From: Escherichia phage AV111
Reading direction: 5' to 3' (one strand)
DNA: 64,000 nucleotides
Sequence record: OR352941.1
In this document: piece after piece, positions 5,668-41,932 of the stretch
Layout: every line of letters begins with the position of its first letter
How positions within the stretch are numbered: position 1 is the first letter of the stretch
The notes under the pieces: generated by a model
The model's input: only the letters and a program-made list of their open reading frames with translations
The model's database searches: none
Told to the model about the DNA's origin: nothing
Made by a program: the position numbers and the translations under genes

Positions 5668-6130
5668 AATGCGTCATTTTATCGTAGATGTCTTGAATAA
5701 ATGTTTCATCTACCAACGCTACCATATCATCGTCATGACTGTCGTAGACATTATGAACGAAGTAACTATATTTCTTTGCAACTTCCTTACGTTCTTTTTT
5801 GATACGTTGGACAAAAGCATTAAAACAAGCTCGAGTTATGTATGCATGTGGGTTATTGTACTTAGTTTCGTCGAAATTATGAAGTCCCTTAATAGAGGCT
5901 TCAATCCCATCTGCAATCATCTCCTGCTTCCAAGACTGGGTATATCCTGAAAAGTTGAAACGTTTGGACAGGCCTTCGGCGATAAGCATAATTGCTAAAC
6001 CGATGGTATCATTCTGACGAATAATTTTGTTTGGGTCTTTATTATTTAAGAGCTCCTTTTTCCACTCGATTATAGCGGCGAGAAGCTCTTTATTATTCAC
6101 ATAGTTATTTTTAGGTTTTTGTTCAGTCAT
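5573..6130 (-). CDS. 55: gp55 late-transcription sigma factor
   Basis: Track ORF starts at TTG 6148; ATG at 6130 with SD AAGAGGT gives 185 aa as in T4; [13 protein letters not shown]...[15 protein letters not shown] matches recalled T4 gp55. Confidence 0.9.
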
Positions 6131-6202
6131 AAGTACCTCTTGGCTCAATTCATAGGTCTATTATATCATAATATTTAGAGACCTATCTTAAAGCACGAGA
6201 TA

Positions 6203-6472
6203 CTATCGGAGCAAACAATAAGCCTGAAACACTTTTTCCATTAAACGTTTGAACTCATGGATATCGATATAAAGCTCAGTAAGACCGGCATTATAAAGAA
6301 AATCTAAAAAGTTCTCATGTGTTTCGTTATAGACGCCTTCGTTTAATTGAGATACATGAGTTTCCCAAAAACCAACACCTTTAACGAATGGAAAATACGT
6401 GACTTTCATGTATTCGTCAACATAAAATTCGCCCAGCTTTTCTTCAGTTATACTGATTCGAGTTAATTTCAT
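6203..6472 (-). CDS. hypothetical protein
   Basis: 89 aa ORF. Confidence 0.45.
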   Translation of the reverse strand: MKLTRISITEEKLGEFYVDEYMKVTYFPFVKGVGFWETHVSQLNEGVYNETHENFLDFLYNAGLTELYIDIHEFKRLMEKVFQAYCLLR

Positions 6473-6696
6473 TCTAGTTCCTTTGCTGCTTCAAGAGCAA
6501 CATCCAGCGAATCAAATTGGTCAACGAAATCAATATTCAACGCATCGTCAACCGTAGCATATAACCACCATTGTTTGAATTCGTATTCTAGAATAAATCC
6601 AGGACCTTCAATCTGAGGAAGACCTAGACTATTTGTACCAACTTCGTAACCAGCTAGACGCAGGTCATTAATCAAAGTTTCTGTTAATACGCTCAT
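6469..6696 (-). CDS. hypothetical acidic protein
   Basis: 75 aa ORF, translationally coupled to neighbours. Confidence 0.45.
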   Translation of the reverse strand: MSVLTETLINDLRLAGYEVGTNSLGLPQIEGPGFILEYEFKQWWLYATVDDALNIDFVDQFDSLDVALEAAKELE

Positions 6697-7025
6697 TTTA
6701 CCGCCTTAACAATTTTAAGGTCAACGAATTTTTTCTTACGTTGATTTTTCATACGACGGATAGTCTTTTCAGAGATTTCATGTTTCTGATAAGCTTTAGA
6801 TTCAACACCAAATGCAGCAACGTCAAATTCAGAAAGAATATATTGTACTAGAATTTCACGAATAGAATTACGTCCAATTTTCTGGTCGTGTTTTTGCATG
6901 ATTTCATAAAGACGGAATTCCCACGCATCAAGAACTTGAGGAGTAACAATATTGCCAGATTCCAGAAGAGCAACAACTTTATCGAAAGCGAAAGAATTAA
7001 CTACGTTTTTGATTTTAGTAGACAT
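6693..7025 (-). CDS. hypothetical protein
   Basis: ATG at 7023-7025 with SD GAGGAAA; track start 7073 is upstream of the promoter -10. Confidence 0.5.
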   Translation of the reverse strand: MSTKIKNVVNSFAFDKVVALLESGNIVTPQVLDAWEFRLYEIMQKHDQKIGRNSIREILVQYILSEFDVAAFGVESKAYQKHEISEKTIRRMKNQRKKKFVDLKIVKAVK

Positions 7026-7062
7026 ATTATTTTCCTCGGTTATTTTATTATCCAACGAGAGA

Positions 7063-7091
7063 ATTATACTCATCTCTCAAGAGTTTGTATA
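7063..7091 (-). promoter_or_regulatory. early promoter
   Basis: Minus TATACA-N17-TATAAT; -10 flanked by GAGAGA/TCTCTC inverted repeat. Confidence 0.45.
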
Positions 7092-7331
7092 CTATTTTTT
7101 AAGCATGAAAAGTAAGTAATTTGTATCACGTGGAGTAATATCAACACCCATATCAAAGATGCCTTTATAGATTGGGTATTTGTTTTCGGTTGTATCGAAG
7201 CTGAAACTATTTCCATCACAACTAACAGTAATAGCATCTGTTAAAATGTCATACTCAATCCTAACAATTGAATCCCCAATTTTAACGTCGAGGTGTTTTT
7301 TGAATTTGATAAAATCTAATTCTTGGGCCAT
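7092..7331 (-). CDS. hypothetical protein
   Basis: 79 aa ORF. Confidence 0.45.
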   Translation of the reverse strand: MAQELDFIKFKKHLDVKIGDSIVRIEYDILTDAITVSCDGNSFSFDTTENKYPIYKGIFDMGVDITPRDTNYLLFMLKK

Positions 7332-7394
7332 GATATTTTCCTCATTTTAAGACGATAGGAAGATAATAACATGTCTTCCTATCATTGTACATTA

Positions 7395-7595
7395 TTAACC
7401 GAACTTTTTAGCGCCTTTCCAGCCTTCGTACATAACTGCACAAGTCAGTAGTACAGCTTGCTGGCATTCTTTGTATTTGTAAATCCAGAACCAGCGTAAG
7501 AAGTCTTCATCCTCAACGCCGTTGAGTTTCATATTGGCAAAGAATTCGGCACGTTCTTCACGAAGCTTTTGCGATAACATAGATTCAGGATTCAT
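7395..7595 (-). CDS. hypothetical protein
   Basis: 66 aa ORF. Confidence 0.4.
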   Translation of the reverse strand: MNPESMLSQKLREERAEFFANMKLNGVEDEDFLRWFWIYKYKECQQAVLLTCAVMYEGWKGAKKFG

Positions 7596-7733
7596 TTTGT
7601 GTTCCAGGCCCCATTTTCATCGATGAACTTAATCCAGTCATTTACAGACCATTTAGTTGTATCACCCTTTGGATTAACATTTAAAGTATATAATCCCTGC
7701 TTAAAAAGCATTCGTTTGATATTCATAATTTCC

Positions 7734-22917: not shown

Positions 22918-23221
22918 TTAAAGTTTCAACAAAATTCACCAAATCATTCAGACAAGCATCAACCTGTTTTTCATAAAAGTCTTCGTTATCATTTACTGCA
23001 TGATAAGCTACATCATTCAAATCTGAATCGGCTTCACGTAAGTCACGGATAAGGTCCATCAATTTATTAGCTTGTTCACGGGTCATTTTACCATACTCGT
23101 TTCAATAAGATTCATTATGCCGTTTACCATGTTATAAGTAAACATTGGATAATTGTATTGTACCACAACATAAGCGATAAGCAAAAGTTTCATTTTGTTC
23201 TCCGTTTGTTTTGATAGGACT

Positions 23222-23251
23222 ACTATAACATAGTCCTACCAAGATGTAAAC
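23222..23251 (-). promoter_or_regulatory. early promoter (stem-loop cassette family)
   Basis: Minus GTTTACA-N17-TATAGT embedded in TAGGACTA...TAGTCCTA palindrome. Confidence 0.55.
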
Positions 23252-32853: not shown

Positions 32854-33159
32854 TTATTTTCCTCGACATTCTTTAATGAAATTTTCTAGATTGGTAGATT
32901 CAATAGCTTTTTTACGAGCTTCTGCGTGTTCTTCTTCAGACAATTTACATTTATAATTGACCCAGACGTTATGGTCGAAACTAGTCGTGGCATATAATAA
33001 CAATGCTCCAACGAATAGCAAAAACGGCGATAAGAATACAAAACCAGGAACACCATCCATACTGTAAGCCTTTTGTAATACTGCAACAGAAAGAGTTGCG
33101 TAAAAAGGTGATGCAAGTATTGTTAAAAGACCAATTCGATTGGTTTCTGTTAATTTCAT
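32854..33159 (-). CDS. membrane protein with C-terminal ENFIKECR tail
   Basis: 101 aa; two TM segments; SD GAGGAGA; early promoter 33188-33217. Confidence 0.55.
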   Translation of the reverse strand: MKLTETNRIGLLTILASPFYATLSVAVLQKAYSMDGVPGFVFLSPFLLFVGALLLYATTSFDHNVWVNYKCKLSEEEHAEARKKAIESTNLENFIKECRGK

Positions 33160-33187
33160 AATATTCTCCTCATGTTTTAATAGGACT

Positions 33188-33217
33188 ACTATAACATAGT
33201 CCTATAATTGTGTAAAC
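33188..33217 (-). promoter_or_regulatory. early promoter (stem-loop cassette family)
   Basis: Minus GTTTACA-N17-TATAGT in TAGGACTA...TAGTCCTA palindrome, then SD GAGGAGA and ATG 33159. Confidence 0.55.
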
Positions 33218-33229
33218 AGTTTTGTGAAG

Positions 33230-34186
33230 TTATTTGAAAGGTTTTACCATATGGAAATTTTGTTTGAAACGTTTGACGTAATCGTCATGTCCTAAGCTTT
33301 GGTACATACTTACTACTTTGCTGTAGTTTTCCCAGGCGTATTCACGGAACCAACCGGAGGTGATGCTTGTGCAGACTTTTTCCAATGCCATTATGAAACT
33401 GGCTTCAGGGTTAATTTCAAAGTTATTAGGAATCTGAGAACGTTCTAATGCTAGTACACATGATTCTTCATATACACCGGCCAATTTGACCATTTCTGGT
33501 AATGATTCGAACTTCTCGCGTGAGGTCATGACTTCAGAACCATCTTTCATGTAAAATGTATACGCTGGACGGTCAGTTAGTGCAATGGCTTCATGGATAG
33601 TATCATGGTCATATGTATAGATGTCATCTTTAAAGAACGCACTTTTAGAAGTGTCAAGAACTGGGTGAGCATAATTCAAGGTTTCTTTCTGGCGTTTCAG
33701 CATAATTTCAGTAAGTTCATCGTTCAGTGTAACACCTTTACCACGAAGATACTGAATATGGTTCATAGTCTTTAAAAAGAATGGATTATTTTTCTTGAAA
33801 CGATGAGACATCTTAATTGCAAGACATATCTCAGGAGTTGCCCAGTAAAACCCGTTCAAACGGTCTTTAGTCAAATTTTTCTTGGCGTATTTTAAAAGGT
33901 CATAAGAAGACGTGAAATCTTCAGGAGTGAGTTCACCGACTAATTCACGGACATTAGTGATTGCCGGAACAATATATGCTTCAAAATGAGTTTCGCGTCC
34001 ATTATGGAAGCATTTGAAAACTTGGACATCAGGGTTATCTTGGTGAACATATACACCCATCATTTGATTTTTGAATGCATTCCAAGAACATTGGTCCGCA
34101 ATAAAGTCCCAATCACTATTTTTAATAGCGCTAGAATCAATAAGACCGTGATAGTGAAGTGCACGAGAACCAATAACTAACATCAT
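33230..34186 (-). CDS. hypothetical protein with N-terminal NTase-like motif
   Basis: 318 aa; N-terminus VIGSRALHYHGLIDSSAIKNSDWDF resembles the GS...D.D nucleotidyltransferase signature. Confidence 0.5.
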   Translation of the reverse strand: MMLVIGSRALHYHGLIDSSAIKNSDWDFIADQCSWNAFKNQMMGVYVHQDNPDVQVFKCFHNGRETHFEAYIVPAITNVRELVGELTPEDFTSSYDLLKYAKKNLTKDRLNGFYWATPEICLAIKMSHRFKKNNPFFLKTMNHIQYLRGKGVTLNDELTEIMLKRQKETLNYAHPVLDTSKSAFFKDDIYTYDHDTIHEAIALTDRPAYTFYMKDGSEVMTSREKFESLPEMVKLAGVYEESCVLALERSQIPNNFEINPEASFIMALEKVCTSITSGWFREYAWENYSKVVSMYQSLGHDDYVKRFKQNFHMVKPFK

Positions 34187-34214: not shown

Positions 34215-34466
34215 TTAAATTTCACGACATGCGATATTATATTCATCCCAGAGGTCATCATGTGAAGCCTCTACCAATGGAACGATTGTACCGTTTATGT
34301 CTTCATTATAAGGGCAAATTGTACAGTGCGCATCTTCGAATCGGATGCCTTTGTGTTCAGATTTTTTATAACGCATATCGAATATCTTTGCAAACTTTTC
34401 ACGAGTAATGGTTTTAGCAACTACTTTGGTTCCGATACTTTCGTAATAAATCATTGTGGACTCCAT
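34215..34466 (-). CDS. hypothetical protein
   Basis: 83 aa ORF downstream of early promoter 34483-34512. Confidence 0.5.
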   Translation of the reverse strand: MESTMIYYESIGTKVVAKTITREKFAKIFDMRYKKSEHKGIRFEDAHCTICPYNEDINGTIVPLVEASHDDLWDEYNIACREI

Positions 34467-34482
34467 TTGTTTTGATAGGACT

Positions 34483-34512
34483 ACTATAACATAGCCCTAT
34501 CTTGTTGTAAAC
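34483..34512 (-). promoter_or_regulatory. early promoter (stem-loop cassette family)
   Basis: Near-identical copy of the 33188 element. Confidence 0.55.
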
Positions 34513-34516
34513 TGTT

Positions 34517-34714
34517 TTAGCAAGAATAACTAGATGATACCCAGCCTTGAACAGTGATACTATTGTGGGATAATGAGATCGCGTCCTGGAGATTCAGACC
34601 TGCGTTATCTTCAATCCATAATGTAACTTCTTCGCGTTCTTCTGTTGCAATTTGGAACAGGTTTTCCAGAGCAGCTACTGCCGTACGTACAGCACAATCT
34701 AATTCACGAGACAT
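34517..34714 (-). CDS. small protein, WVSSS-x-x-C family
   Basis: 65 aa ending QGWVSSSYSC. Confidence 0.5.
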   Translation of the reverse strand: MSRELDCAVRTAVAALENLFQIATEEREEVTLWIEDNAGLNLQDAISLSHNSITVQGWVSSSYSC

Positions 34715-34723
34715 ATGGTTTCC

Positions 34724-34996
34724 TTAGCAAGTGTGAGAAGATGCGACCCAGCCGCCATCTTCAAGGCTCAGGTTGTAGTCGTATTGGTAAACGTCAGCCC
34801 ATTCAGCCTGGCCGTTTTTTGTACAACGTTCAAGATCGGCTTTAAGATGTCCGGGTGAATGATAGGTTCCACCCATACCATAAGCTGGATACAAGTTGAA
34901 CGTTGTGTTTTGTTTATCAGCAATTTCTTTGGCAGCCTCAATAGCTGCATAGATTTTTGCTACAGCTTCAGCCAGTTCGGTTTGTTCTTTAGACAT
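34724..34996 (-). CDS. small protein, WVSSS-x-x-C family
   Basis: 90 aa ending DGGWVASSHTC; paralog of 35006-35311. Confidence 0.55.
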   Translation of the reverse strand: MSKEQTELAEAVAKIYAAIEAAKEIADKQNTTFNLYPAYGMGGTYHSPGHLKADLERCTKNGQAEWADVYQYDYNLSLEDGGWVASSHTC

Positions 34997-35005
34997 AATG
35001 ATTCC

Positions 35006-35311
35006 TTAGCACAACGCAGAAGACGAAACCCAAGCACCTTCAGTAATAACGTAACCATTACCTTCACGCTTAACATCGCCACCATTATTTTCAATTTCAT
35101 CTTTCATCCACTGGGATACGATTTCACCCTTAGGATAATAAGTACGGCCGCTACCATAATCACCTACAGAAAATGATACGGCATATTGGTCTGCGATCTT
35201 TGTTGCTTCTTCTTCGATACGTTCAGCTTGATTCAGAAGTTTATAAATTGCATCTGAAGCGGATTTGGCATCATTAAACTCTGGTACTTTAATTTCAATA
35301 ATCTTACTCAT
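35006..35311 (-). CDS. small protein, WVSSS-x-x-C family
   Basis: 101 aa ending EGAWVSSSALC; ATG overlaps upstream stop. Confidence 0.55.
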   Translation of the reverse strand: MSKIIEIKVPEFNDAKSASDAIYKLLNQAERIEEEATKIADQYAVSFSVGDYGSGRTYYPKGEIVSQWMKDEIENNGGDVKREGNGYVITEGAWVSSSALC

Positions 35312-35667
35312 TTTCTACATTCCTTAATAAAGTTTTCGATTGTTTCATTTTCACGTTTAGCTAGAAGTTCATTATAACTAATCATTTGAGAAGCGTAAAT
35401 ATTTTTATTTTTCTTGTTATGGTTTATAAAATCGTAGTAAAAATAGACTACGGTACAAAAGGATGCGATGGATGCAAAGGCTTGGGTATACCGTAAGTCC
35501 TGCCATTGGTCTGTGAATCCACCAGTGTTCCCTATAAATCCTAACACAACGCCGTCAATAAGAAATCCAACTAATCCAAAGGCAAATCCCATGCCAATAC
35601 TCATAATAAAAATTAGAATGTTCTCACCAAGAGAAGGCCATACGGTTAAGAGTTGAGGCTTTTGCAT
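35308..35667 (-). CDS. membrane protein with C-terminal ENFIKECRK tail
   Basis: 119 aa, multiple TM segments. Confidence 0.5.
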   Translation of the reverse strand: MQKPQLLTVWPSLGENILIFIMSIGMGFAFGLVGFLIDGVVLGFIGNTGGFTDQWQDLRYTQAFASIASFCTVVYFYYDFINHNKKNKNIYASQMISYNELLAKRENETIENFIKECRK

Positions 35668-36071
35668 CTTATTTCCTTAACGAATTCCATAGCTTCTTCA
35701 TATTCATACTTTTTAACAGCTTCATCATACTGAGCTTTGGCTTTTGCGCACTGAACTTTCCATTCACGAACTCGAGCTCTGTGATGACGGCCTTGGTACC
35801 AATATCCCACCCAGTTAATAGGCATTAATAAAAATGGCACAATAAACGGCCCGGCTATAACAAGTAAAAACACTGCATCAGACGATATAACTTCACTAGA
35901 ATCTAAAACAGCTCCTATAATCATAAAGATTAAAAATGCTAAAGCTAAAATAGGGCCAAATAGTACTTCGTTTGGGATTAATTTACGTTTGTATTCGTAT
36001 GCCCAGGGCTTACTTGGCATGTATAGGGTTGGCTTTGACATATTCTCTACATTCCATAATAAATTGCTCAA
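35646..36071 (-). CDS. membrane protein (start uncertain)
   Basis: 141 aa with TM segments; N-terminus overlaps 36010-36633. Confidence 0.45.
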   Translation of the reverse strand: MSNLLWNVENMSKPTLYMPSKPWAYEYKRKLIPNEVLFGPILALAFLIFMIIGAVLDSSEVISSDAVFLLVIAGPFIVPFLLMPINWVGYWYQGRHHRARVREWKVQCAKAKAQYDEAVKKYEYEEAMEFVKEIRCKSLNS

Positions 36072-36633
36072 GGATTAAATTGTTAGTGAAATTAGGACTA
36101 ACAACCATAGTTTCATAAAGCGCGTCAATAGCACTTAAAGCATCAACTCTTTTAAGCAAAGGCTTGCCTTCATACATAGTTTCAGAATCGATGATTAACG
36201 TAAAGTAATATTTTTTATTATCGACTAGAACTTCTGTATCGATATAAAACATATTAGACCTCAGAAGCTTATCTCTAAAACCATAATAATCTTCTGAACG
36301 TTCACTGATATATTCCAATTCGGTGTTTAAACAACAAACAGACCACGTAGGAGCAACGAAATCAGTGAATCTAATATCATGGTCTGCAACTAGTTTAGCA
36401 ATAGCTCCGATATCATGAATCATAATACCTGGGGCTAATAAAGATTTTCTGCTATGGCTAGCCGTTTTCTCGGTGGTCTCATAAGAAGACGACCAGTACC
36501 ATTTACGTCCGGTTGCAACATATCGTAATGAATCAACTAAAGACGTAGGTGGATTTACCTTATCTCGGAACTCTTCGAACATTGAGTCAATATCATTATT
36601 TTGGTTTCGCATGTTAACTCCTTTATTATCCAA
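36010..36633 (-). CDS. hypothetical protein with C-terminal ...FIMECR motif
   Basis: 207 aa ORF. Confidence 0.5.
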   Translation of the reverse strand: MDNKGVNMRNQNNDIDSMFEEFRDKVNPPTSLVDSLRYVATGRKWYWSSSYETTEKTASHSRKSLLAPGIMIHDIGAIAKLVADHDIRFTDFVAPTWSVCCLNTELEYISERSEDYYGFRDKLLRSNMFYIDTEVLVDNKKYYFTLIIDSETMYEGKPLLKRVDALSAIDALYETMVVSPNFTNNLILEQFIMECREYVKANPIHAK

Positions 36634-41886: not shown

Positions 41887-41902
41887 TTGTTTTGATAGGA
41901 CT

Positions 41903-41932
41903 ACTATAACATAATCCTATCAGCATGTAAAC
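41903..41932 (-). promoter_or_regulatory. early promoter (stem-loop cassette family)
   Basis: Minus GTTTACA-N17-TATAGT in TAGGACTA...TAGGATTA near-palindrome. Confidence 0.55.

Follow-up and report, generated by a model that had tools for sequence, protein, structure and literature searches.

A phage family of small acidic proteins with a conserved Ser-Ser-x-x-Cys C-terminus, linked to a DUF7277-DUF7275 gene

Three consecutive short genes of Escherichia phage AV111 encode proteins that end in much the same way, with a Trp, a run of Ser and a Cys. This raises the questions of whether the shared end is a true protein feature, how widely it occurs, and what it might serve. The genes lie in a stretch of 64,000 nucleotides (sequence record OR352941.1), which was analysed as a whole and is called the window below. 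The genes and their conserved elements are as follows.

35006..35311, minus strand: paralog 1, 101 aa, orthologue of RB69ORF139c, matching phrog_899 (E=1.3e-22); N-terminal helix, DYGSGRTYYP hairpin and tail AWVSSSALC-COOH
35132..35158, minus strand: Gly-rich β-hairpin loop of paralog 1, Y52-G-S-G-R-T-Y-Y-P60, the second conserved motif
35009..35032, minus strand: tail codons of paralog 1, W-V-S-S-S-A-L-C
34724..34996, minus strand: paralog 2, 90 aa, matching phrog_899 (E=5.3e-19); helix, AYGMGGTYHSP hairpin and tail GWVASSHTC-COOH
34853..34882, minus strand: second conserved motif of paralog 2, Y39-G-M-G-G-T-Y-H-S-P48
34727..34750, minus strand: tail codons of paralog 2, W-V-A-S-S-H-T-C
34517..34714, minus strand: paralog 3, 65 aa, RB69ORF136c type, matching phrog_4882 (E=7.7e-37); helix and tail GWVSSSYSC-COOH, without the Gly-rich hairpin
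34520..34543, minus strand: tail codons of paralog 3, W-V-S-S-S-Y-S-C

The initial annotation described three tandem, translationally coupled paralogs with a common tail. The open reading frame listing confirms three consecutive genes, all co-directional on the minus strand, whose products end in ...EGAWVSSSALC, ...DGGWVASSHTC and ...VQGWVSSSYSC. The Cys had been placed three residues from the end, which is incorrect: in 3/3 proteins it is the very last residue, three residues past the Ser run. Translational coupling remains plausible and is not shown, because consecutive paralogs are separated by 9 nt (TAA GGAAnCAnT ATG) without overlap; only paralog 1 has an ATGA overlap, with its upstream gene. 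The claim of paralogy held in part. Homology between paralogs 1 and 2 is detectable, extending across the Gly-rich block and the tail (BLASTP E=7e-5) and bearing out the internal block that had been ascribed to these two, while paralog 3 is not related over its full length and matches the family profile solely through an 11-residue tail (hhalign probability 90.7%). All three paralog types are kept across T4-like genera, suggesting distinct roles rather than redundancy. Truncated alleles exist in some isolates, namely a 71-aa RB69 ORF139c and, for paralog 2, the P0046 form. The paralogs reside in a hyperplastic early region of the genome.

A trivial explanation for the tail would be that a nucleotide element is conserved there, for instance the ribosome-binding site belonging to the next gene; the initial annotation had named this artefact, together with a lack of protein-level conservation in orthologues, as what would refute its proposal. 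In favour of the artefact, TAAGGAA...ATG directly follows paralogs 1 and 2. However, the Shine-Dalgarno sequence begins at the stop codon, past the tail, and paralog 3 bears the tail without a gene directly behind it. Pairs of tails from the three paralogs have 6/10 residues in common and only 16-20/30 nucleotides, and for 2-3 identical residues per pair the codons differ, Ser for example being TCT in one tail and AGT in another. The tail is also present in the distant phages Myxococcus Mx1, Aeromonas CC2 and Acinetobacter AM101, and is retained in homologues at 25-45% identity. The synonymous codon differences and the retention at such low identity indicate that the tail is selected as protein; the artefact is refuted and can be all but excluded.

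The extent of this conservation is evident in the wider family. The pattern W-x-[S/A/P]-S-S-x-x-C forms the C-terminal end of 184/195 collected homologues. The W, S(-4) and C(0) of these 184 tails are fixed by the counting pattern itself; S(-3) is Ser in 178 of the 184, and flanking positions are variable. In every family alignment the W, two Ser and the Cys occupy invariant or nearly invariant columns. The tail persists even where the remaining protein is unrecognisable, as in paralog 3 and in five FW[IV]PSSM[SE]C proteins of locus L084. In a six-frame translation of the 64 kb window, GW[VIL][SA]SS matched only twice, at the tails of paralogs 2 and 3; paralog 1 falls outside this pattern, having A instead of G before the W. 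Some members (P0053, P0107, P0122, P0150, P0152, L032 and L066) repeat W-x-S-S-x-C inside an acidic loop.

The profile search and structure prediction that the initial annotation had proposed as checks were both run. The exhaustive profile search returned 172 clusters at 50% identity, with a median length of 90 aa and a median pI of 4.5, and the paralog 2 type is the most frequent in the family at large. A 953-aa profile match, P0121, was rejected as a false positive, being a helicase with repeated segments that lack the tail. In Shigella phage JK45 the label "sulfurtransferase" is attached to an e.4-like gene, which lies outside the family. The three window genes are thus members of a large, phage-restricted and uncharacterised family of small acidic cytoplasmic proteins, defined by three elements: a helix at the N-terminus, the Gly-rich β-hairpin YG[M/S]GxTYYP, and W-x-[S/A/P]-S-S-x-x-Cys-COOH as a C-terminal end that hardly varies. 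In paralogs 1 and 2 the helix leads on to the ...IAD..G..F.F..YG[M/S]GxTYYP hairpin; paralog 3 consists of helix and tail only. Within the Gly-rich motif, the family alignment shows Y52, G53, G55, T57 and Y58 of paralog 1 to be nearly invariant, and in paralog 2 Y39 and G40 are invariant and G42 and Y45 nearly so. The AF2 model of paralog 1 (pLDDT 90.4) has strands at 47-49 and 56-59, and its tail is predicted to be ordered, forming a strand (93-96) and a short helix (97-100) at pLDDT ~89.

That the family had not been recognised is borne out. Scans of the three window proteins and 92 family members gave no match in Pfam, NCBIfam or PADLOC; among the PADLOC-DB defence and anti-defence families no match was significant, the best (E=0.01 and 0.008) both covering short stretches. 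When the family alignment was used for a profile search of PDB sequences, only coiled-coil noise and no fold match came back. No source gives the family a name, and the literature searched (RB69 ORF names, DUF7275/DUF7277 and related concepts) is silent.

Downstream of paralog 3 lie three further features.

34475..34500, minus strand: repeated 26-nt intergenic element with an 11-bp hairpin, directly behind paralog 3
34215..34466, minus strand: 83-aa gene, phrog_3723, containing C-T-I-C, between the paralogs and the enzyme gene
33230..34186, minus strand: partner gene, 318 aa, DUF7277 (Pfam E=1.3e-27) and DUF7275 (E=3.3e-78), RB69ORF134c type

In the window, the DUF7277-DUF7275 gene begins 331 nt downstream of the paralog 3 stop codon on the same strand. 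The generality of this arrangement was established from both sides. When 80 phage loci were fetched with the DUF7277-DUF7275 protein alone, 70 carried 1-5 strict tail genes on the same strand just upstream, against a background of 2/7,684 ORFs. The family HMM matched 131 times in these 80 loci, every time on the enzyme strand: 128 matches lay within 4 kb upstream of the enzyme gene, 3 within 0.5 kb downstream and none beyond. Conversely, among 42 loci fetched with the YGMGGTY motif alone, the enzyme gene was found within 1.4 kb downstream in 40, or 40/40 testable loci, the remaining two lying on contigs that stop within 0.5 kb downstream of the small gene. Contig look-ups placed the enzyme gene within 4.1 kb downstream of the small gene in 7/7 cases. 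The small-protein family and the downstream DUF7277-DUF7275 gene therefore constitute a near-obligate gene module, with 1-6 paralogs per enzyme gene and phage. The pair is found in T4-like and jumbo phages, in Acinetobacter and Pseudomonas phages and in Myxococcus phage Mx1. Among 185,579 bacterial and archaeal genomes it is all but missing, with 4 loci that all come from metagenome-assembled genomes.

These data bear on the possibility that the small proteins are independent effectors, acting alone as acidic mimics, sponges, metal binders or Cys-held oligomers, and adjoin the enzyme gene merely by riding in one accessory island. In support, they are small and acidic, their fold is predicted with confidence (pLDDT 90.4) and has no counterpart among solved structures, they are located in the hyperplastic early region, and the truncated alleles of some isolates imply that they are dispensable. 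However, same-strand adjacency is preserved across unrelated phage groups with differing surrounding genes, and no other neighbour is conserved in the enzyme loci: clusters of the Cys-tail family occur in 81/94, the next family in 29/94, and no other partner is common across loci. Passive co-inheritance would not be expected to hold in 40/40 testable loci within 1.4 kb. We consider independent action unlikely.

The family of the 83-aa gene occurs in 29/94 loci and is conserved only in T4-like relatives; the gene is probably not a core part. The 26-nt element overlaps a promoter-like site, TTTACA-17-TATAGT, and probably marks the start of a transcription unit comprising the 83-aa gene and the enzyme gene.

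What activity might the partner possess? Its N-terminal domain contains a VIGSRAL...SDWDF motif and is followed by a highly conserved C-terminal domain. In alignments the signature reads hhIGSxAL...DxDhh, with G6, D25 and D27 invariant; G6-S7...D25-x-D27 corresponds to an hG[GS] turn and a DxD pair, and is invariant or nearly so in 35 diverse sequences. E69, nearly invariant, is a candidate third carboxylate whose structural position is not given by the single-sequence AF2 model, which was unusable (pLDDT 38.5). The second domain contains many invariant His, Asp and Glu residues. Profile matches were weak: the PolyA_pol head domain at E=0.025 (15.4 bits, cut-off 23) and the DUF6036 nucleotidyltransferase family at E=0.053. 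Searches of Pfam, PDB profiles and hhalign gave no significant match to a known nucleotidyltransferase family, the top PDB profile hit being the RNase L KEN domain (E=0.24, not significant). The enzyme family matches 733 phage records, two of which are labelled "putative nucleotidyltransferase". From the motif only, we infer that the DUF7277-DUF7275 protein is a Pol-β-type nucleotidyltransferase joined to a strongly conserved second domain.

The enzyme also occurs without a tail-bearing partner, in short forms from Gordonia, Mycobacterium and Vibrio phages and in the whole genome of DSS3_VP1, so it must have an activity independent of the small proteins. Its substrate may be RNA 3' ends, by analogy with RlaP, a phage and bacterial Pol-β nucleotidyltransferase that adds 1-2 nucleotides to damaged RNA 3' ends (bioRxiv 10.64898/2025.12.29.696909). 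A co-variation of enzyme Cys272, in the motif KVCTSITSGWFR, with the presence of a Cys-tail partner was dropped as a rule because DSS3_VP1 has the motif (KVCTTLCSGWFR) but no partner in its genome. RNA-repair genes are often found near the module, namely Rnl1 with Pnkp, Rnl2, PTH2 and tRNA genes; the ligase neighbours are Rnl1 and Pnkp at L003, L004, L094 and L095, DNA ligase and RNA_ligase at L005-L007, and Rnl2 at L102. Neither the window nor most T4-like loci have RNA ligase or end-healing neighbours.

The strict linkage to a predicted nucleotidyltransferase gene provides a concrete candidate partner for the modification, targeting or binding role first proposed for the tail, a proposal that conservation and linkage support while the function remains inferred. 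From sequence and synteny, the small proteins are likely to be functional partners of the DUF7277-DUF7275 enzyme. Several small genes upstream of one enzyme gene are a typical arrangement for substrates and their modifying enzyme. Our preferred model, which we hold tentatively since its chemistry and role are inferred, is that the small proteins serve as clients of the predicted nucleotidyltransferase and that the tail is the recognised, and probably modified, site. In this model the tail and the Gly-rich loop would lie at the same end of a small β-sheet and jointly form the recognition site of the enzyme, a site at which the small proteins would most likely be covalently modified. The preferred chemistry would be nucleotidyl transfer to a tail Ser hydroxyl, in which the thiol or the carboxylate of the terminal Cys takes part. 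The 1-6 paralogs of a phage, with their divergent bodies, may each address a different target, the tail being their common functional end. The module would be expressed early and have an accessory role; it often lies amid RNA-repair and counter-defence genes. Chemistry is favoured over simple binding because the conserved tail residues (Ser, Ser, Cys) are nucleophiles and not typical docking residues, which is itself an inference. No modification has been observed, and covalent modification of the tail by this enzyme, resting on sequence and synteny only, is a proposal that could well prove wrong. Against it, the nucleotidyltransferase assignment is at motif level only, the AF2 model of paralog 1 predicts an ordered tail rather than a floppy substrate peptide, the enzyme family also occurs where tail-bearing proteins are lacking, and nucleotidylation of Ser alone would leave the requirement for the terminal Cys without explanation.

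It is possible, alternatively, that the small proteins are non-covalent partners that regulate, inhibit (in the manner of antitoxins) or retarget the nucleotidyltransferase. The tail would then plug or dock on the enzyme, for example with its Ser hydroxyls, thiolate and terminal carboxylate at the metal/NTP site, while the variable bodies select RNA or protein targets, the real enzyme substrate being RNA 3' ends, as with RlaP. The linkage data support this reading as well as they support the client model. The order of the genes, with small acidic ones first and the larger enzyme gene after them, recalls that of antitoxin and toxin. The occurrence of the enzyme alone in other phages implies an activity of its own, RNA-repair genes are frequent among the neighbours, and RlaP provides a Pol-β nucleotidyltransferase that acts on damaged RNA 3' ends (bioRxiv 10.64898/2025.12.29.696909). 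However, there are 1-6 paralogs per enzyme as opposed to the 1:1 ratio of toxin-antitoxin pairs, an invariant Ser-Ser-x-x-Cys would be an odd docking motif, these very acidic proteins (median pI 4.5) show no evident RNA-binding features, and no similarity of the enzyme to RlaP or T4 NrdC.11 was detected.

A third alternative treats the tail as the cross-linked core of a RiPP-like product. A Ser would be activated and converted to dehydroalanine, to which the terminal Cys would add, closing a thioether ring; variants are an aminovinyl-cysteine ring formed with decarboxylation, as in epidermin from S-x-x-C-COOH, or a lactone between Ser and the C-terminus. The DUF7277-DUF7275 protein would be both activating enzyme and lyase. 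In the distance from S(-3)/S(-4) to C(0) and in its free C-terminus the tail corresponds to the S-x-x-C-COOH motif of AviCys peptides and to the usual lanthionine ring sizes, a resemblance that serves as a lead only. Several precursor-like genes precede a single enzyme gene, some members repeat W-x-S-S-x-C in an acidic loop, and the second enzyme domain has its many invariant His, Asp and Glu residues. Against this, Pfam annotation of the neighbourhoods shows that LanB, LanM, LanKC, HFCD-decarboxylase, radical-SAM and YcaO proteins are not conserved nearby, the small proteins are confidently folded domains rather than leader-plus-core peptides, and there is to our knowledge no precedent for Ser dehydration driven by a nucleotidyltransferase. 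This reading is very unlikely. A bolder form of the client model, which we also regard as unlikely though less so, is that lytic phages possess a protein-scale analogue of RiPPs, in which a dedicated nucleotidyltransferase-type enzyme covalently modifies the Ser-Ser-x-x-Cys tail, either with a nucleotide or, via a nucleotidylated Ser, with a thioether or aminovinyl-Cys-like ring; one enzyme would thus arm several divergent small effectors with a common chemical end.

Three anonymous T4-like ORFs have thereby become part of a defined, testable module comprising a conserved enzyme and a family of small proteins whose reactive C-terminus hardly varies. The linkage suggests a two-part phage module that had not been described and that is widespread, extending through T4-like, jumbo, Pseudomonas, Acinetobacter and Myxococcus phages. 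If the tail is indeed modified, phage biology would gain a protein modification and an enzyme-substrate logic that are both new; in the bolder form, the post-translational chemistry would be new and the module would represent a class of its own among phage accessory or counter-defence modules. Should the proteins instead steer or restrain an RNA-end nucleotidyltransferase, phage RNA repair or host takeover would turn out to have a further level of regulation. In both cases, the module gives a first functional handle on Pfam DUF7275 and DUF7277 and on two PHROGs of unknown function. Those PHROGs, phrog_899 and phrog_4882, are the closest existing descriptions: the window proteins match these unannotated clusters, which hold no record of the tail or of DUF7275 linkage and are not joined despite their common tail.

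Among characterised systems, type II toxin-antitoxin pairs have a gene order that the module fits; there are one to five or six small genes per enzyme and the enzyme also occurs alone, a comparison resting on gene arrangement only. RlaP (PF10127; T4 NrdC.11) is a phage-encoded nucleotidyltransferase, as the DUF7277-DUF7275 protein is predicted to be, and its C-terminal helical domain is a further likeness. It is often near RNA ligase and Pnkp genes, as the module is at L003, L005, L094, L095 and L102. The two belong to different Pfam families: 35 enzyme family members gave no PF10127 match at E<=5, no signal emerged when the enzyme profile was compared with T4 NrdC.11 by hhalign (probability 0.04%), and the relevant sections of the RlaP report (bioRxiv 10.64898/2025.12.29.696909) describe no dedicated small-protein partner.

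AviCys peptides and lanthipeptide cores of the epidermin type carry a C-terminal S-x-x-C (Ser19-Cys22 in epidermin). The spacing from Ser to the terminal Cys is identical in the phage tail, and the Cys has a free carboxylate, a resemblance at the level of the motif only; no dehydratase, cyclase (LanB/C, LanM, LanKC/L) or HFCD decarboxylase (LanD) Pfam family was found in any neighbourhood. Unlike most RiPP precursors, the phage proteins are folded and 60-130 aa long, and their conserved core and variable body represent the opposite design. LysW (EDWGE tail) and ThiS/MoaD (GG tail) are small acidic carriers whose C-terminal residue is the handle of a partner enzyme, and the LysW tail also has a conserved Trp. 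Their folds and partner enzymes (ATP-grasp or E1-like) differ, and unlike in these systems no downstream pathway genes are linked to the phage module.

Pol-β nucleotidyltransferases that modify a partner protein are known from GlnD-PII, GlnE-glutamine synthetase, MntA-HepT, CitX-CitD and MdcG-MdcC. The last two are holo-ACP synthases acting on a Ser, and CitD and MdcC are acidic and ~100 aa long. The HEPN Rx4-6H motif is absent from the window enzyme, which has K-M-S-H-R-F-K-K-N-N-P-F-F with no His 4-6 residues after R129, and the enzyme family has no HEPN Pfam match. The phage module resembles these systems in pairing a GS...DxD enzyme with a small protein and in the proposed transfer of a phosphodiester-linked group onto a side-chain hydroxyl. 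It differs from them in lacking sequence or profile similarity, in presenting a C-terminal S-S-x-x-C tail whereas the known acceptors are Tyr or Ser residues inside a fold, and in comprising 1-6 paralogs where the known protein-modifying systems have one substrate.

The paralog region of AV111, a T4-type, RB69-like (Mosigvirus) phage, lies on the minus strand in the lysozyme-to-tRNA early region, flanked by e.2-like and e.3 genes. The initial annotation had claimed three consecutive, co-directional ORFs sharing a C-terminal tail, which the ORF listing and the sequence uphold; it had also placed the conserved Cys three residues from the end, which failed, as Cys is the final residue in all three.

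35006-35311, minus strand: paralog 1, 101 aa, ending GAWVSSSALC
34724-34996, minus strand: paralog 2, 90 aa, ending GGWVASSHTC
34517-34714, minus strand: paralog 3, 65 aa, ending QGWVSSSYSC

The start of paralog 1 overlaps the upstream membrane-protein gene (ATGA), the spacers between paralogs 1 and 2 and between 2 and 3 are 9 nt each with a GGA ribosome-binding site, and directly 3' of paralog 3 there is a hairpin and a promoter-like element, and no gene. Paralogs 1 and 2 are homologous (BLASTP E=7e-5) and both match phrog_899, while the family-profile match of paralog 3 (phrog_4882) is confined to its 11-residue tail.

A nucleotide-level artefact, which the initial annotation had named as what would refute a shared tail, was rejected because, in all six reading frames of the 64 kb window, GW[VIL][SA]SS is confined to two places, the tails of paralogs 2 and 3, and because the same residue is specified by different codons among paralogs (e.g. 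Ser by TCT vs AGT). Paralog 1 falls outside this pattern, with A instead of G preceding W. Tail pairs have 6/10 residues in common vs just 16-20/30 nucleotides.

Word-indexed searches, together with an exhaustive HMMER search of 1.84 billion representatives, recovered 172 clusters at E<=1e-3. The ending W-x-[S/A/P]-S-S-x-x-C is present in 184 of the 195 proteins collected, a few with one residue more. Counting back from the terminal Cys, the pattern itself fixes W, Ser -4 and Cys in the 184; Ser occupies -3 in 178 of them, and in independent alignments W, both Ser and Cys form invariant or nearly invariant columns. These data establish the existence of the family and conservation of its tail at the protein level. 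The proteins are small and acidic (median 90 aa, median pI 4.5), and in about half the tail Cys is the sole Cys. Besides the tail, a Gly-rich hairpin is conserved as a further motif: ...IADExGxxFxF..AYGMGGTYYP, with DYGSGRTYYP in proteins of the paralog-1 type. In the shortest members (~63 aa, e.g. from Acinetobacter phage AM101) the hairpin leads straight into the tail; topology, inferred without inspecting coordinates, would then bring the S-S-x-x-C end out on the side of the sheet where the Gly-rich loop lies, and the two motifs probably form one site. No small-family member matched Pfam, NCBIfam and PADLOC scans returned nothing, and none of the sources of the collected proteins carried a family name.

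Some members contain one or two extra internal W-x-S-S-x-C copies in an acidic loop before the terminal copy (proteins P0053, P0107, P0122, P0150 and P0152; phage loci L032 7709-7954 and L066 7432-7677; e.g. ...RWESSSEGWESSSEGWVSSSSQC), and W-x-S-S-x-C appears to act as a repeatable unit. Truncated alleles lacking the tail also exist: RB69's own paralog 1 (P0002, RB69ORF139c, 71 aa) ends before it, and so does a frameshifted paralog 2 (P0046, 75 aa, phage vB_Eco_mar005P1), an allele present on five contigs. The small genes are therefore likely dispensable in some isolates or under some conditions.

Just downstream of the paralogs lies the gene for the predicted nucleotidyltransferase, hereafter the enzyme.

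33230-34186, minus strand: 318-aa DUF7277 + DUF7275 protein

Contig look-ups for diverse small-protein homologues placed a same-strand enzyme gene <=4.1 kb downstream in 7/7 cases, often directly adjoining. In 80 IMG/VR loci fetched with the enzyme only, the family HMM matched 131 ORFs in 64 loci, all 131 on the enzyme's strand: 128 lie <=4 kb upstream, 3 <=0.5 kb downstream and none beyond. The strict tail pattern was found in 70/80 of these loci (one copy in 23, two in 23, three in 13, four in 10, five in one) vs 2/7,684 other ORFs. These two are possibly displaced family members, as loci L046 and L067 yield, with a looser pattern, tail-like ORFs that lie on the other strand and 4.8-5.9 kb downstream of the enzyme gene. 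Loci without a strict tail mostly hold diverged versions, such as L084, whose paralog bodies are too diverged for an HMM match; two others lack upstream DNA. In L084 itself, a 368 kb jumbo-phage contig, five tandem paralogs (6099-7645) precede the enzyme gene, and all of them end FW[IV]PSSM[SE]C.

In the reverse direction, loci fetched with YGMGGTY only had a same-strand enzyme gene <=1.4 kb downstream in 40/42 cases; the two exceptions are contigs ending <0.5 kb past the small gene (40/40 testable). Same-strand linkage is thus near-obligate. That the small proteins act independently and are merely co-inherited is unlikely, being hard to reconcile with 40/40 linkage; a physical and functional partnership with the enzyme is the probable, though inferred, alternative. 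Conservation across the locus set extends to no other neighbour, and the 83-aa gene between paralogs and enzyme gene in the window is restricted to T4-like relatives (29/94 loci). The pair is carried by T4-like, jumbo, Acinetobacter and Pseudomonas phages, and also by Myxococcus phage Mx1. Across bacteria and archaea (185,579 representative genomes) the enzyme occurs four times, always in metagenome-assembled genomes, three of which have tail-bearing ORFs.

A 26-nt element, ATAGGnCTATGTTATAGTAGTCCTAT, is present in four copies in the window, where none is expected by chance.

23214-23239, minus strand: 26-nt element
33180-33205, minus strand: 26-nt element
34475-34500, minus strand: 26-nt element
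41895-41920, minus strand: 26-nt element

Two copies, one immediately downstream of paralog 3 and one immediately downstream of the enzyme gene, are embedded in ~50 nt of near-identical intergenic sequence. The element coincides in part with an 11-bp hairpin (z = -3) and with a promoter-like TTTACA-17-TATAGT site, and resembles a conserved early-promoter cassette. Its placement, seen in the light of T4 early promoters, suggests that the paralogs and the enzyme gene belong to adjacent early transcription units, expression being inferred.

Genes near the paralogs share a second C-terminal pattern.

35308-35667, minus strand: gene with the second pattern
35646-36071, minus strand: gene with the second pattern
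36010-36633, minus strand: gene with the second pattern
32854-33159, minus strand: ORF with the second pattern
34215-34466, minus strand: 83-aa gene, ending ...NIACREI

The e.3, e.4 and e.5-like membrane proteins and ORF 32854-33159 end ...NFIKECRK, ...FVKEIRCKSLNS, ...FIMECREYVKANPIHAK and ...NFIKECRGK. At 35308 the motif codons (AAGGAATGTAGAAAATGA) contain the next gene's ribosome-binding site and overlapping start; the pattern could reflect paralogy, or serve in part as a coupling element at the nucleotide level. Several JK-series records label an e.4-like membrane-protein gene (L001 3660-4055, Shigella phage JK45) 'sulfurtransferase'; the vB_EcoM_SA79RD orthologue is labelled hypothetical protein (similar to RB69 e.4). 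The label is probably an annotation error and, belonging to the e.4-like gene, was discarded as a clue to the Cys-tail family.

An alignment of 35 diverse enzyme sequences shows an N-terminal hhIGSxAL...(9-19)...DxDhh signature, with G6, D25 and D27 invariant and E69 nearly so, and a C-terminal domain with many invariant polar residues (KMSHR, Y-x-HP, YDHDxxH, PAY, EExxVLAxERS, KVCTSITSGWFRxxAWEN). At the motif level, the signature is that of a classic Pol-beta nucleotidyltransferase. The assignment rests on this motif alone, since database matches are weak (PolyA_pol head domain, E=0.025 with a consensus query; DUF6036 nucleotidyltransferase family, E=0.053) and the PDB holds no sequence match; two Acinetobacter phage records label the enzyme 'putative nucleotidyltransferase'. 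Identity with RlaP (PF10127; T4 NrdC.11), an RNA-ligase-associated nucleotidyltransferase that extends damaged RNA 3' ends by 1-2 nucleotides (bioRxiv 10.64898/2025.12.29.696909), was rejected, as profile comparisons gave no match. As is typical of RlaP genes, the enzyme gene lies in some loci, though not in the window or in most T4-like loci, near RNA ligase and end-healing genes; its neighbours across loci include Rnl1 with Pnkp, Rnl2, DNA ligase, PTH2, HD_4, NADAR/macro and tRNA genes.

The loci and contigs examined gave no case of the small family without the enzyme, whereas the enzyme occurs without a tailed partner as short forms (253-263 aa) in Gordonia, Mycobacterium and Vibrio phages, and as a 301-aa form in DSS3_VP1, a phage with no tail-bearing ORF anywhere in its genome. 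From this we infer that the enzyme has an activity of its own and that Cys-tailed proteins are clients gained in one large enzyme clade. Each short partnerless DUF7275 enzyme (Gordonia ClubL, Mycobacterium WXIN, Vibrio VH7D and K460) is directly adjoined by a ~100-aa gene of another kind, without a Pfam match, which is conceivably an alternative small partner.

L090 4600-4890: adjoining ~100-aa gene
L091 4639-4947: adjoining ~100-aa gene
L103 2860-3156: adjoining ~100-aa gene
L093 4614-4922: adjoining ~100-aa gene

We favour a model, its chemistry inferred, whereby the enzyme would covalently modify the tail of the small proteins, because the invariant Ser, Ser and Cys are all nucleophiles and sit at a C-terminus that must be free, because the tail persists where the body has diverged beyond recognition, and because 1-6 divergent paralogs per enzyme fit several substrates served by one modifying enzyme. 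The main rival, ranked lower but possible, holds that the small proteins are non-covalent regulators, inhibitors or adaptors of an RNA-end nucleotidyltransferase. RiPP-like thioether or AviCys closure of the tail fits its S-x-x-C-COOH spacing, a spacing familiar from epidermin, but canonical maturation enzymes are not linked to the module, making this very unlikely. Under the favoured covalent model, a Ser hydroxyl would accept a nucleotidyl group, the most conventional chemistry for this enzyme class; the terminal Cys, whose role is open, may serve as second nucleophile, in ring closure or as metal ligand. Each paralog type is itself kept across T4-like genera, and for that reason the types likely have distinct targets, again an inference.

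No description of the small family, the tail or the gene pair was found in the searchable literature or the libraries searched. In our view the module is unlikely to constitute a new system of protein modification. Its closest known parallel in logic is either a nucleotidyltransferase whose target is a dedicated small protein, or a precursor-plus-maturase cluster.
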